Source of the DNA: an uncultured Dehalococcoidia bacterium
GTDB taxonomy: Bacteria > Chloroflexota > Dehalococcoidia > Lucifugimonadales > UBA3495
Direction: 5' to 3'
Assembly (NCBI GenBank): GCA_950072105.1
Contig: CATMOE010000009.1
Span: forward strand, 14,443 to 78,442
Length of the DNA: 64,000 nt
Shown: piece after piece, positions 23,201-26,094 of the stretch
Position numbering within the stretch: position 1 is the stretch's first letter
How the letters are laid out: each line of letters opens with the position of its first letter
The notes under the pieces: generated by a model
Told to the model about the DNA's origin: nothing
Database searches by the model: none
Seen by the model: the letters and a program-made list of their open reading frames with translations, nothing else
Program-made: the position numbers and the translations under genes

Positions 23201-23935
23201 TTGGACACATCAACCTTTCGCGGTGCGCTCTTGACCTCAGATTTCAGATCATTCAGTCCCATTGAACTGGTACGCAGGCGATGTTCCGGCGTAGCAAGGG
23301 ATTGGCTTGACCGAATGGTTTCCCGAATCGAATCGCCTTTGGACCGTAACATCTTTGGGGCGGCCTATGCGGGAGCCCGCCGCCGTCTCGGTGGTGAACC
23401 GGTAGTCTTGGACGCGGAGGAACAGGCCGCCCTGAAAGGTACAGGGCTGCTTTCTCTAAGTGGGCATTCTCTCGACGAAGTTTGCCGCATCGCCCTGCTA
23501 GTGCGGACTTCGGAGTGTCTGCCGCCCGAGGATTATTCGTCCTTCATAAGTGAGTTGTATATCCGGGGCGACAACTTCGAACGGCAGGCCCTGCTCAGAG
23601 GACTGACCTATTTGCCGGACCCGGAACAGTTTCTCTCCACCGCCATCGAAGCTTGCCGCACCAGTGTCCAACTCATCTTTGAAGCCATCGCCTGCGACAA
23701 CCCTTACCCGTTCCGTTACTTCCCGGAGTTGAACTACAACCAGATGGTCCTCAAAGCCCTCTTTATCGGCTCTCCATTGGCGAGATTAGTAGGACTTGAG
23801 GAGCGAATCACCCCTGAACTCGTCCGCATGGCGGAAGACTACGCCACCGAGCGGCAGGCTGCCGGCCGGCCGGTGCCGGAAGATATCCCACTGTTTATCA
23901 CTAATGATTTGGGAGCTAGGAATGAAGCTTTTTGA
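23201..23935 (+). CDS. eboA: EboA domain-containing protein
   Basis: GD..ERQALLRGL..L, A.EACRT, FEAIACDNPYP, NQMVLKALF, ER.AAGR.VP; start uncertain. Confidence 0.82.
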   Translation: MDTSTFRGALLTSDFRSFSPIELVRRRCSGVARDWLDRMVSRIESPLDRNIFGAAYAGARRRLGGEPVVLDAEEQAALKGTGLLSLSGHSLDEVCRIALLVRTSECLPPEDYSSFISELYIRGDNFERQALLRGLTYLPDPEQFLSTAIEACRTSVQLIFEAIACDNPYPFRYFPELNYNQMVLKALFIGSPLARLVGLEERITPELVRMAEDYATERQAAGRPVPEDIPLFITNDLGARNEAF

Positions 23936-24794
23936 CCCTCACATACATATGACGTCGCGGCCTACATCCGACTACCAGGCAATGGCCGACGCAGGTATCT
24001 CTGCTATCGTTGAGCCGTCCTTCTGGTTGGGCCAGCCCCGGACTCATGTTGGTACCTTTGAAGACTATTTCCTTTCCCTCCTGGGTTGGGAGCGTTTTCG
24101 GGCCAGCCAGTTTGGCATATCCCACTTCTGCACCCTGTCGATCAACCCCAAGGAGGCTAACAGTCCTTCGATAGCGCAGGGTGTGTTGGACCTGTTGCCG
24201 CGATACCTGGAAAAGGACGGCGTGGTCGCGGTCGGCGAGATCGGCTTCGACGATCAGACTGATGCCGAAGAGCACCTATTTGCCGAACCGTTAAAGCTGG
24301 CGATGGAGTTCGAACTGCCAGTGCTCATTCACACCCCACATCGAGATAAGAAACGGGGCACGGCGCGGAGCCTGGAATTAGTTAGAAGGGTTGGGTTTCC
24401 TGAACAACGAGTCCTCATAGACCATAATAACGAAGAGACACTGCCTATGGTCCTGGAAACCAACTGTTGGGCGGGGCACTCCATTTACCCTGACACCAAG
24501 ATGGACGAACTTCGAATGGTGGCGCTGATTCAGACGTATGGCAGTGACCGGATCATCATTAACAGCGCCGCCGACTGGGGAGTCAGCGATCCATTTAAAG
24601 TGCCCAAAACCGTCGAGGCTATGTATGAGGCCGGGCTCGATGAGAAGACTATCCAGACGGTGGTCTGGGACAACCCGGTAGCGTTCTTCGGCCAGAGCGA
24701 ACGCCTGGATCTGGATAGAGATCCCATCGACCAAAGCCAGCTATGGGAGGGCAATTCCGTCCTGCGCGGCCAAGAGCCTGTTGTCGAGTCGTAG
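23922..24794 (+). CDS. eboB: TatD-family hydrolase (EboB-like)
   Basis: DPHIHM.SR..DY, EP.FWLGQPRT, NPKEAN, GEIG, IHTPHRDKK, IDHNNE, NSAADWG.SDP; overlaps the eboA stop. Confidence 0.85.
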   Translation: MKLFDPHIHMTSRPTSDYQAMADAGISAIVEPSFWLGQPRTHVGTFEDYFLSLLGWERFRASQFGISHFCTLSINPKEANSPSIAQGVLDLLPRYLEKDGVVAVGEIGFDDQTDAEEHLFAEPLKLAMEFELPVLIHTPHRDKKRGTARSLELVRRVGFPEQRVLIDHNNEETLPMVLETNCWAGHSIYPDTKMDELRMVALIQTYGSDRIIINSAADWGVSDPFKVPKTVEAMYEAGLDEKTIQTVVWDNPVAFFGQSERLDLDRDPIDQSQLWEGNSVLRGQEPVVES

Positions 24795-24962
24795 GATCAG
24801 CGAACGCGACGCACCGTTGTCTTCGACGTGGTTCGAATTAAATCGACGCAGAATCCACCGGTTGCCTAGTCATGAATTCCCCCTACCGTGGCAAATCGAC
24901 AGGCCTAGCGGCCTATGCTAGACTGACTCAAATCGGTCAAACAATAGACGAGGTTTCTACGC

Positions 24963-25883
24963 ATGAAAAAGGTAGTCAGCGAAATCAGCGGGGTGGTGTT
25001 CAGCCTGCCTTGGCTGGTGGCCAAAGACAACGGTCTGTTCGAGGCCGAGGGCATCGACATGGAGTTCGTTAAGGCCATCAGGACCGGCCCGGTGGAGCAC
25101 ACCGAGAACCCGGAAGACGTTAATCCCATTCTGGGGCACGTCGCCTTCGAACAGGGACAGGTGTCCATCTACCGCGCTTGAGAAGAGGGTCAGGTCCGTC
25201 GGGCCTATGAAAGCAAACAAGGGGCCAGGATAATCGCATTGCGTTCCGCGGTGGCCAGCCAGGCCATCATGGTGCCCCCAGACTCGCCCCACAACTACCC
25301 GGGCACCTTGGGGAACCAACCCGTCGCGGTAAATTTCCACGCCGGGTCCCACTACGTTGGATTGCGATTGCTGGAAGGTTACCTGCCGGTGGAGAAGATT
25401 AAACTGGTGCACTACGGGTCGCCGATCCATCGCTTCGAGTCCATGCTCAACGGAGAAGTCGCGGCGGCGGTGGTGATGGAGCCCTGGATCGCCCTGGGAG
25501 AGAAACTGGGTTGCAAGACCGTGGCCGAGGGTCACTACCTGGGCGCGGAGAACGCCAGCGAAGACATGGACGAAGAGACCTTCGCTGCGATCAACCGGGC
25601 GGTGGAGAACGCCGTAGACCTGATCAACGCGGACAAGCGAAAGTACCTGCACTACCTCATCGACGACCCCAGCTTCGCCCAGGCTGCCGCTAAATACGGC
25701 GGGTTGACACCCGAAGACTTCCACCTGCCCCGCCTGCGGTACACCAGGCCGGCCGTGTATACGGACGAGATGGTGGAGGACACGTACAATTGGCTGACAC
25801 GTTGGGGATTGCTCAGCGATCTGGCTTGCTCCGCCGACCTGGTGGACAACCGTATCGCCGAGCCGGCGTCCGCCGACGACTGA
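24963..25883 (+). CDS. Periplasmic-binding-fold (NMT1/THI5/SsuA-like) protein with in-frame TGA at codon 73, putative selenoprotein
   Basis: ORFs 24963-25181 and 25239-25883 are in one frame interrupted only by TGA 25179-25181 (IYRA*EEGQVRR). LPWLVAKDNGLFEAEGID and AVNFHAGSHY..EPW fit a PBP2 fold. A SECIS-like hairpin follows. Confidence 0.75.
25192..25206 (+). promoter_or_regulatory. Putative bacterial SECIS element
   Basis: Stem AGGUCC/GGGCCU with G-U-C apical loop; the stem starts 11 nt and the loop 17 nt after the UGA. Confidence 0.55.
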
Positions 25884-25891
25884 GAGTCTGG

Positions 25892-25927
25892 CCCTCACAC
25901 CCATCCCCTCTCCCTGCGGGAGAGGGG
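25892..25927. repeat. REP-like element CCCTCAC..CCCCTCTCCC-n-GGGAGAGGGG (copy 1)
   Basis: Palindromic element; degenerate second copy at 47795-47829. Confidence 0.6.
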
Positions 25928-26094
25928 TGCCGCCAATAAGATCCGTTAACGGATGAGGGATCACCTGAACCCGGCGAGCCTTCATTGACCCCGGCCAGGA
26001 AGCGAGTACAGGCCGGGAATATTTTTTTTGCTCCAAACCTCGACCTAGCCCCAAGAGACACCCTTGTATGCGGTAGAATAATCCCATCTAGATC

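Follow-up and report, generated by a model that had tools for sequence, protein, structure and literature searches.

The prototype of bacterial selenoprotein genes with an intragenic SECIS element is fdhF of Escherichia coli, and in the bacterial SECIS model, reportedly that of Zhang and Gladyshev, the loop lies 16-37 nt from the UGA. The periplasmic-binding-protein (PBP) fold is known from enzymes such as the desulfinase DszB, which has a Cys nucleophile and whose gene adjoins a luciferase-like monooxygenase gene. Substrate-binding selenoproteins have also been listed, namely SaoX, SaoB and BtuF-like proteins, in Table 1 of a 2026 review (PMC13188914); the family described here is absent from the 119 families and subfamilies of that table. 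Term look-up in the accessible parts of PMC13326102, PMC12013277, PMC2398784 and PMC9312934, whose supplements may list one, returned no NMT1, sulfonate or substrate-binding selenoprotein, and a literature search found no paper naming the family, although survey supplements may include it.

The gene lies at 24963..25883 on the forward strand of the window, that is, the 64,000-nt stretch of Dehalococcoidia DNA that was analysed, and comprises 306 codons closed by a TGA stop. A putative Shine-Dalgarno-like GAGG (24950..24953, +) stands 9 nt 5' of the ATG at 24963, and the frame is interrupted once, by a TGA at 25179..25181 (+), the proposed selenocysteine (Sec) codon U73. Translation with table 11 yields two ORFs, 24963..25181 (72 aa) and 25239..25883 (214 aa), which a preliminary description of this DNA had joined into one frame (...VSIYRA-U-EEGQVRRAYES...) with a single TGA, high-GC3 codon usage on both sides and no further lesion. 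Our reading of 24963-25883 agrees on each point: there is exactly one internal stop, and GC3 is 0.806 before it and 0.803 after it, with 0.35-0.64 in the remaining two frames.

A lone internal stop resembles a fresh nonsense mutation, and one relative's copy has truly decayed (L033/L057, with a 1-nt deletion within the hairpin in L033), as might be expected were this a pseudogene, or a base-call error, in an ordinary NMT1-like gene. Against this, the same TGA recurs in 20 orthologous loci from 19 of 60 related genomes, at protein identities of 46-99%; it is found in all 81 metagenome matches, the search pattern for which itself required TGA, and it stays TGA in contigs from four metatranscriptome libraries (four studies), which may contain DNA and say nothing on translation. 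The frame is open on both sides in all 20 loci, with 71-74 codons before the TGA and 233-237 after it, no second lesion is present, and dN/dS is 0.154 upstream and 0.161 downstream, indicating equal purifying selection on the two halves. As far as sequence comparison allows, the recurrent TGA, the open frames and the dN/dS values refute decay or error, to which we give next to no credence. Nor did we find any support for the idea that TGA has become a sense codon throughout this lineage, which we regard as equally implausible: the terminal stops of the 20 loci are a mixture of TAA, TAG and TGA, the last closing four of them (the window gene and three further orthologues), and the in-frame TGAs that we found coincide with Sec positions known from listed families.

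Many public annotations split the gene, as had been foreseen, or leave out its first 72 codons; partial proteins of 186-286 aa (47-71% query coverage) account for 75 of the best 120 database matches, among which some clusters contain hundreds of member sequences. Gene-call fragments thus misdescribe a protein that is widespread in SAR202 and other Dehalococcoidia, which are major deep-ocean bacteria. Taken at face value, these gene calls would favour two products, an N-terminal peptide of 72 residues that ends at the TGA and, from a downstream start, a C-terminal protein some 210 residues long. We consider this very unlikely, since the downstream start is not conserved (column 93 is TTG in 5, ATG in 2 and CTN in 13 of the 20 loci) and the called starts vary between relatives, while the break would fall inside strand 3 of domain I in what is confidently predicted to be one fold. 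The Cys homologues are, moreover, single chains, and two products would leave the 16-nt invariant block described below without a role.

The residue that homologues carry at the TGA column is cysteine. All 45 full-length homologues in our alignment, and all 14 of a first set, have Cys here, not Trp, within the motif YRACEWGQ[VI]RR; the A-C-E-W-G motif that had earlier been given from recall is therefore real, with its Cys at the TGA column. Four of the five paralogues in the same genome also have Cys (YNACEWG, YRMCEWG, FRLCEWG), and at 80 genome loci the motif column is Cys in 63 and TGA in 15, the remaining 2 being without the motif. The 20 Sec forms make up a single clade in the tree (support 100/97) amid Cys clades, and one relative (locus L035) has Cys instead of TGA. 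The gene thus bears several marks of a bacterial selenoprotein gene: its UGA matches a Cys of homologues, the coding sequence is conserved before and after it, and other Sec users have TGA orthologues.

The proposed SECIS hairpin, AGGUCC-GUC-GGGCCU (25192..25206, +), starts at the 11th nt past the TGA, where it had been placed, and has a 6-bp stem including one U-G pair around a loop GUC. The intervening 10-nt spacer, GAAGAGGGTC (25182..25191, +; codons E74, E75, G76 and the first base of Q77), shows free synonymous variation (GAA/GAG, GAG/GAA and GGT/GGC/GGG/GGA). C25191 and the hairpin, on the other hand, form an invariant block of 16 nt (CAGGTCCGTCGGGCCT), the longest all-identical run over the 20 loci, where the next longest are 5 and 3 nt; of the 59 degenerate columns with an invariant amino acid, only 5 show the same codon at every one of the 20 loci, namely the consecutive codons 77-81. 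The Cys forms write the same Q-V/I-R-R with many different codons. A metagenome scan whose pattern ignored synonymous differences in codons 77-81 gave 119 stretches; the 80 loci listed hold 81 matches with 71 distinct downstream sequences, and among these there are two versions of the hairpin only, the middle loop base being U (GUC) in 57 and G (GGC) in 24, although the synonymous sites flanking the frozen block vary. Relatives therefore keep TGA and hairpin together, which the preliminary description had put forward as a check, in the 20 orthologous loci as in the 81 metagenome matches.

None of the six stem pairs ever varies over 80 distinct sequences, so that the covariation count is zero changes and the pairing itself rests on no compensatory changes; we propose the hairpin as a candidate SECIS element. 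On one sequence it is no better than chance: the fold of 25170-25240 has z = 0.37, with 126 of 200 shuffles folding at least as well, and the minimum-free-energy structure of this segment picks other pairings, the proposed hairpin being absent. Its significance thus comes only through comparison among relatives. A search of 25100-25320 against Rfam at permissive thresholds found no SECIS family and returned two chance-level matches (PVT1_6, E 0.41; pRNA, E 5.3), and a genome-wide search with a 13-mer of the hairpin found one other site, not behind a TGA.

The genome encodes the machinery on which a selenoprotein would depend. Scores are 550 bits for selA, 352 for selB and 385 for selD, which has its own TGA, and a tRNA-Sec (selC) is present, so that the check suggested for these four genes has a positive outcome. 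Occurrence of selA in all 19 genomes with the TGA form is a weak test, because selA is near-universal in the order (56 of 60). At least 11 other TGA-interrupted genes of this genome fall in listed selenoprotein families (three DUF3179, two DsbA, one Trx/AhpC-NHL, two Peripla_BP_2, two rhodanese and one AhpC-TSA), a lower bound from a noisy scan in which 4213 TGA-joined candidates were reduced to 345 with a spanning match and to 26 with mainly Cys at the column. Fifteen of these 26 were chosen by eye for Pfam, giving the 11 members of listed families, 3 without a family and 1 zinc-ADH; the last is probably not a selenoprotein, its TGA preceding the domain.

Hairpins of the 11 genes and of selD start 9-21 nt past the UGA, with stems of 5-8 bp and loops of 3-9 nt, and one rhodanese gene has nearly identical geometry to that seen here (start at nt 12, 6 bp, loop GGC). 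The earlier claim that the hairpin has the geometry of bacterial SECIS elements thus holds when it is set beside listed selenoprotein genes of the same genome. A stem-loop whose apical loop contains G follows closely on the UGA (nt 11, 6 bp, GUC/GGC), and the UGA-to-loop distance of 16 nt is at the short end of the 16-27 nt seen in 12 other Sec genes of the genome.

Our preferred reading, to which we give a probability of roughly 0.88 from comparison of sequences, is that the window gene is an intact selenoprotein gene with Sec at UGA 25179-25181. This UGA would be decoded by Sec-tRNA(Sec) brought by SelB, and SelB would be recruited by the hairpin, 11 nt downstream and inside the coding sequence, acting as a bacterial-type SECIS; Sec73 would then stand in for a Cys that is invariant across a wide family (YRA-C-E-W-G-Q-V/I-R-R). 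The in silico basis comprises one translated frame, the pairing of Sec with Cys, an RNA-level constraint on the hairpin, the Sec machinery and the fold; actual selenium insertion, and the role of Sec, we infer. The comparative data reveal translation of the codon and constraint on the RNA behind it, not which residue enters, and would also suit a UGA read through without selenium, with the hairpin stimulating near-cognate decoding (as Trp or Cys) or some other recoding. We think this improbable, given the complete Sec machinery, the classic Sec/Cys pattern of the column and a hairpin similar in geometry to the SECIS hairpins in this genome's other genes from listed selenoprotein families; a lineage in need of Cys has, besides, TGC and TGT at its disposal, which the 63 Cys loci use.

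An AF2 model of the 306-residue protein (pLDDT 91.9) agrees with the PBP fold claimed before: its best structural match is SsuA (3ksx; Z 24.7, rmsd 2.6 over 266 residues), with further Z scores of 23.6 for 2x26 and 21.6 for TauA. Residue 1 of the model aligns with residue 28 of 3ksx, the start of mature SsuA, and the chain thus begins at the first strand, in keeping with the lack of a signal peptide already remarked upon. We envisage a cytoplasmic product of 306 residues whose two-lobed fold is of SsuA/TauA type (NMT1/THI5-like). Sec73 is predicted at the end of strand 3 and start of helix 3, in the strand-helix turn YRA-U-EEG, among loops that line the inter-domain cleft and facing the domain-II motif F-H-x-G-S-H-Y. 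That motif aligns with the sulfonate-binding Thr-rich turn of TauA and SsuA (GVNFHAGSHY with SsuA FQKGSSSHN and TauA PFISTTHY), and Thr132 of TauA, within the aligned stretch, is described as a sulfonate and amine ligand in PMC6906117.

The Sec form does not reach the Pfam gathering cut-offs for NMT1_2 (15.7 against 24.7 bits) or NMT1 (13.8 against 20.5 bits). Precomputed PF09084/PF13379 assignments exist for many Cys homologues, and the fold agrees; the Sec form is a divergent relative within the NMT1/THI5-like superfamily. An NCBIfam search with the read-through Sec form gave no family, the SaoX and SaoB models (NF040735, NF040727) included, although one Cys form has a faint match to SaoX (22.9 bits, where the cut-off is 300). 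With the SsuA and TauA models the Cys forms reach 16-37 bits, below the cut-offs of 163.5 (TIGR01728) and 304 (TIGR01729), and a cluster search with one natural Cys form returned only generic NMT1 or 'ABC substrate-binding' names.

The statement that no permease or ATPase adjoins the gene is correct for its immediate neighbours in the window but does not extend to Cys-form homologues in other phyla. The window gene lacks the traits of an ABC binding protein (an export signal, an adjacent permease and ATPase), and NitT/TauT genes are not adjacent to it, the nearest such pair being on another contig. In Nostocales and actinobacteria, by contrast, Cys-form homologues lie within ABC-importer operons, and in 13 Nostocales loci, which also encode a separate SBP of 343-349 aa, they directly precede SBP-ATPase-permease genes. 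A predicted complex between a Cys form from Nostoc and the ATPase encoded in the same operon (score 0.00, mark 0.32) was uninformative either way. Across the loci compared we found no conserved operon around Sec forms, neighbours being unconserved beyond close kin: the TatD-like gene is a neighbour nowhere but in this genome, close kin alone share the genes for S49 peptidase, MazG, Lit and luciferase-like monooxygenase, and at other loci the neighbours include TPP enzymes and GMC oxidoreductases. The luciferase-like monooxygenase gene adjoins the Sec gene in 7 loci of related genomes, an adjacency that may be fortuitous.

Readings of function draw on the fold, the position of the motif and these neighbours. 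Our best guess is that Sec73 is a reactive residue of the cleft that acts on, or covalently holds, a small anionic ligand. We give an even chance to an enzyme with a Sec nucleophile, and see a cytoplasmic binder or sensor that reacts with its ligand and is linked to importers of NitT/TauT type as a more tentative option; organosulfur chemistry as the business of such an enzyme is only a lead. More speculatively still, this could be the first selenoenzyme on a PBP fold, its Sec nucleophile breaking or transferring the C-S (or a sulfur/selenium) bond of sulfonate- or sulfinate-like compounds, in which case Cys might have been replaced by Sec once in SAR202 and kept for refractory organosulfur of the deep ocean.

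If confirmed, the gene would add to the bacterial selenoproteome a family that has a binding-protein fold and is not thioredoxin-like, and would flag one residue as chemically critical in a large uncharacterised family that spans phyla, since C-E-W-G proteins occur in Nostoc, Streptomyces, Pseudonocardia, Bordetella and others; with that residue marked, the function of the family is open to direct tests. At 15 nt, the frozen hairpin ranks with the smallest natural SECIS candidates, and it might be put to use as a compact tag for recoding.

The locus resembles fdhF-type genes in having a UGA at a Cys column, a hairpin inside the coding sequence with G in its loop, and selA, selB, selC and selD, and its 11-nt spacing equals that of the minimal E. 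coli SECIS. It differs in the very small size of the hairpin (6 bp, 3-nt loop), the nucleotides of which are frozen over 46-99% protein identity. Like SaoX, SaoB and the BtuF-like proteins, two TGA genes for which (Peripla_BP_2) are found in this same genome, the product would be a binding-protein fold carrying Sec, but their Sec motifs are UxP, CUxxT and CxxU, whereas here it is RA-U-EEG. SsuA and TauA offer the closest structural match and an aligned domain-II stretch; unlike them, the present protein has no signal peptide, shares about 15% identity, scores far under the family cut-offs, and has an invariant Cys/Sec with many invariant His, Arg and Tyr residues. The C-terminal regulatory domain of NrtC/CmpC (9uai, 9uak, 8wm7; Z 21.1-22.3) is likewise a cytoplasmic SBP-like fold and is tied to a NitT/TauT-type importer, just as Nostocales Cys forms adjoin importer genes, but ours is a stand-alone protein, not fused to an ATPase, and the SAR202 Sec forms have no adjoining transporter. 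The closest solved folds are thus binding proteins, not enzymes, with lower Z scores for THI5 (18.1-20.3), MqnD (17.6) and DszB (15.7-16.2), all of them whole-chain scores; with these three the protein nevertheless shares a superfold that is there used for catalysis.

The gene at 24963-25883 (+) very probably (we would put it near 0.9, on comparative sequence evidence) represents a genuine and widely distributed selenoprotein gene that is apparently uncatalogued. It has GAGG 9 nt before its ATG, as read in the sequence, and comprises 306 codons with a terminal TGA and one internal stop, the TGA at 25179-25181 (+) (context ...VSIYRA-U-EEGQVRRAYES...), which is the proposed Sec codon 73. Translation under table 11 splits the frame into two ORFs, 72 and 214 aa long. 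The preliminary description had proposed a single frame with one TGA and GC3-rich usage across it; on re-reading of the window the frame and all of its coordinates are correct, and GC3 is 0.806 upstream of the TGA versus 0.803 downstream. That annotation would split such a gene was also foreseen, and public gene calls do so: a search of 5.8 billion proteins returned 769 matches, and 75 of the best 120 are partial proteins of 186-286 aa (62-99% identical, 47-71% query coverage), that is, gene calls beginning past the stop, a few with the source names 'hypothetical protein [SAR202 cluster bacterium]' or 'NitT/TauT family transport system substrate-binding protein'. The other 45 of these 120 are full-length homologues (96-99% coverage, 47-54% identity), and in every one the TGA column is Cys, within the motif YRACEWGQ[VI]RR. 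C-E-W-G also occurs in four of five paralogues of the same genome, and the A-C-E-W-G motif previously offered from recall, with Cys at the UGA, is thus verified. Without exception among the sequences examined, Sec forms (orthologues with TGA at this column) read U-E-E and Cys forms (homologues with Cys there) C-E-W, the last two positions being window codons 74-75 (25182-25187). The SECIS does not account for this Trp-to-Glu change beside the reactive residue, since the third base of the codon is free to vary.

The TGA is kept by relatives. Across 60 related genomes the target finds a match in 24, and 20 loci in 19 genomes, spanning one family and three further families of the order at 46-99% identity, have exactly one TGA, at the same column; one related genome (locus L035) has a Cys form. 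All 20 loci show 71-74 open codons from the common start before the TGA and 233-237 after it. All three stop codons, TAA, TAG and TGA, occur at their ends, so TGA is no general sense codon. By the Nei-Gojobori method, 190 pairs give a dN/dS of 0.154 for codons 1-72 and of 0.161 from codon 74 to the end, values that exclude both a pseudogene and a gene confined to the downstream part. No start codon is conserved at column 93, where the window gene has its first start after the TGA: 5 of the 20 loci have TTG there, 2 ATG and 13 CTN. One decayed copy (L033, identical to L057; related genome G013, C2:2066482-2070207) has its frame shifted by a 1-nt deletion within the hairpin (CAGGTC-GTCGGGCCT), with three TGAs in its upstream part and further stops. 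The genome with this copy still has selA.

A species-level genome collection yielded 80 related loci, with TGA in 15, Cys in 63 and no motif in 2. Thirteen of the 15 TGA loci are labelled Chloroflexota, Dehalococcoidia or SAR202, and the other two 'Gemmatimonadetes' and 'uncultured bacterium'; Nostoc, Streptomyces, Pseudonocardia, Mycolicibacterium, Bordetella and Brevundimonas are among the genera with a Cys form (44-53% identity). A maximum-likelihood tree of 70 proteins places the 20 Sec forms in a single clade (support 100/97), one among several otherwise-Cys lineages, with the Cys paralogues outside. The simplest reading would be a single Cys-to-Sec change, after which the SECIS stayed unchanged along branches as long as ~1 change per site.

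The hairpin AGGUCC-GUC-GGGCCU begins at the 11th nucleotide after the UGA (25192-25206, +), just where it had been described. In a single-sequence fold it is unremarkable: shuffled sequences do as well in energy (z = 0.37), and the minimum-energy structure uses other pairs. Aligned by codon, the 20 loci (pairwise nucleotide identity 0.72 at the median and 0.49 at the lowest) have 59 columns with an invariant amino acid and a degenerate codon, of which only five use a single codon throughout, and these five are consecutive: Q77 V78 R79 R80 A81, written CAG GTC CGT CGG GCC. Complete nucleotide identity extends furthest in the 16-nt CAGGTCCGTCGGGCCT, and the next runs are of 5 nt (TGAGA) and 3 nt. 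As a guard against circularity, JGI metagenomes were scanned with a pattern specifying amino acids only (TAY CGN GCN TGA GAR GAR GGN CAR GTN MGN MGN GCN); 119 stretches were found. The 80 loci examined among them gave 81 matches, whose downstream sequences number 71 once duplicates are removed. Each free synonymous site in the flanking codons varies among these 81 matches, and the block itself has only two versions, CGT in 57 and CGG in 24, which differ at the one base at the centre of the loop (GUC or GGC) and leave the stem identical, so that hairpin as well as TGA is kept. Cys forms in the genome collection write Q-V/I-R-R with many codons and form no hairpin. An invariant stem in Sec forms, together with free codons in Cys forms, argues that selection acts on the nucleotides of the stem and not on the peptide, as a protein-binding RNA element would predict. 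Compensatory change is absent because nothing in the stem varies, all 6 pairs being invariant across 80 distinct sequences.

Whether the genome encodes selA, selB, selC and selD had been left as a check, and all are in the assembly (4.08 Mb, 164 contigs, 92% complete): selA scores 550 bits (cut-off 268), selB 352 (cut-off 242; positions 2-580 of 581 matched) and selD, which has one TGA of its own, 385 (cut-off 125), and there is a tRNA-Sec with anticodon TCA. All 19 TGA-form genomes have selA, a weak test since 56 of the 60 genomes have it. An ad hoc scan of the genome for Sec/Cys paralogues, followed by Pfam and using the family list of a 2026 review, found 11 further TGA-interrupted genes in listed selenoprotein families (DUF3179, three; DsbA, two; thioredoxin/AhpC-NHL; BtuF-like Peripla_BP_2, two; rhodanese, two; AhpC-TSA). 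They lie at C1:117534-119246(-), C9:10906-11646(-), C63:12120-13262(+), C4:107251-107886(+), C99:5071-5670(-), C27:25744-27171(+), C3:32241-33170(+), C29:25918-26832(-), C10:62788-63612(+), C40:1857-2681(-) and C4:82049-82615(-), where C-numbers denote contigs (loci L127-L137), and every one of them is matched by paralogues with Cys in the genome and carries a hairpin 9-21 nt past its UGA. One of them is ~2.8 kb ahead of the window start on the same contig. The predicted selenoproteome of the organism is sizeable. The best hairpins of these genes and selD start at 9-21 nt, with stems of 5-8 bp, loops of 3-9 nt and UGA-to-loop distances of 16-27 nt; that of the target is at the short end (11 nt, 6 bp, 3 nt and 16 nt), and has a near-twin in a rhodanese gene (start at nt 12, 6 bp, 17 nt) whose loop, GGC, is the metagenomic variant of the target's. 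A short frame with TGA at C141:4553-4891(-), without a Pfam match, is 96% identical to a C68 frame with Cys at the column; this could reflect mixed strains or an off-frame artefact, or it could be one more Sec/Cys pair.

Six metatranscriptome runs contain 74-96% of the gene's sampled words, and in four of the runs, which come from four studies, contigs span the TGA and show no other letter at it. These RNA-library contigs (X14-X17) are broken at 25176-25213, a stretch of raised word depth (165 vs 27 in X14), which fits a block common to many co-occurring strains. They show presence and an unchanged TGA, and not translation, because such libraries can contain DNA.

An AlphaFold2 model on a 46-row alignment (pLDDT 91.9, pTM 0.89) bears out the claimed periplasmic-binding-protein (PBP) fold. 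It is closest to SsuA (3ksx; Z 24.7, rmsd 2.6 over 266 residues), followed by the periplasmic binders CmpA/NrtA (22.2-22.6), the CmpC/NrtC C-terminal regulatory domains (21.1-22.3), TauA (21.6) and the enzymes THI5 (18.1-20.3), MqnD (17.6) and DszB (15.7-16.2). Model residue 1 aligns to SsuA residue 28, and the chain therefore has no signal peptide, as had been claimed. Family models missed it (Pfam NMT1_2, 15.7 bits vs 24.7; NCBIfam, no match), and Cys forms reach only 16-37 bits vs 163.5 on SsuA_fam. Sec73 ends strand 69-73, just ahead of helix 74-83 in the model, and invariant residues likewise occupy strand ends and helix starts (S14-L15-P16, F125-H126-x-G128-S129-H130-Y131, H150, M172-E173-P174-W175, E189 and Y192). 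In type II binding proteins the cleft between the domains is lined by such positions. In alignment the GSHY turn falls on the I-S-T-T-H-Y stretch of TauA, within which Thr132 is described in PMC6906117 as a ligand of taurine sulfonate and amine, a further contact being made by the Gly79 backbone. From chain order, Gly79 would lie close to the turn that follows strand 3, the site of Sec73.

There is no conserved operon around Sec forms among the loci compared. Close kin share the order CoA-transferase, SDR, two luciferase-like monooxygenases, target, S49 peptidase, MazG and Lit; beyond them the neighbours of Sec forms differ. A luciferase-like monooxygenase is the direct upstream neighbour at L018, L019 and L029, related loci, and in this genome only a TatD-family hydrolase gene (23796-24794, +) stands between the two. 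A perfect 10-bp GC-rich inverted repeat at 25905-25928 (CCCCTCTCCC TGCG GGGAGAGGGG), starting 22 nt past the stop codon and without a T-run after it, may be terminator-like or a repeat element. Thirteen Nostocales Cys-form loci carry, on one strand, the target, an exported NMT1-type substrate-binding protein (SBP), an ABC ATPase and a permease; an ATPase cluster accompanies 29 of the 80 loci and a permease cluster 26. From these Cys-form operons the family would then be ancestrally tied to NitT/TauT-type importers that possess their own binding protein. The only clear NitT/TauT ATPase-permease pair of the target's own genome is on a different contig. TauD-type dioxygenases recur at 4 of the 80 loci and Cys/Met PLP enzymes at 3, as do amidases, and Rhodospirillaceae loci have recurring Mo-hydroxylase, UbiD and Tct genes. 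At ten actinobacterial loci (L090, L098, L106, L109, L112, L113, L122 and L124-L126) another C-E-W-G protein, a more remote paralogue with the motif Y/F-N-V/L-C-E-W-G-G-I-D-R, is encoded ~3.4-3.8 kb upstream of the Cys-form target, with SBP, permease and ATPase genes between or beside the pair.

With the PBP-fold enzymes DszB, THI5 and MqnD as precedents, we give even odds to a cytoplasmic enzyme acting on an imported anion. A cytoplasmic binder or ligand sensor, resembling the NrtC/CmpC regulatory domain that is itself cytoplasmic, is a more tentative reading, and another role, for example in carrying reactive S/Se or soft metals, is less likely still. The Cys-to-Sec swap, with the many His, Arg, Tyr and Glu residues that stay invariant at 45-50% identity across phyla, leads us to lean towards chemistry at residue 73.

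A full-text literature search gave no mention of the family. It was not found by term in the main texts of BSepDB (PMC13326102), deep-Sep (PMC12013277), the GOS survey (PMC2398784) and a 2022 review (PMC9312934), and Table 1 of the 2026 review (PMC13188914), with 119 prokaryotic selenoprotein families and subfamilies, has no NMT1/SsuA-like entry. SaoX, SaoB and BtuF, as presented in that review, are also binding-protein selenoproteins, but differ from the target in their motifs and models.
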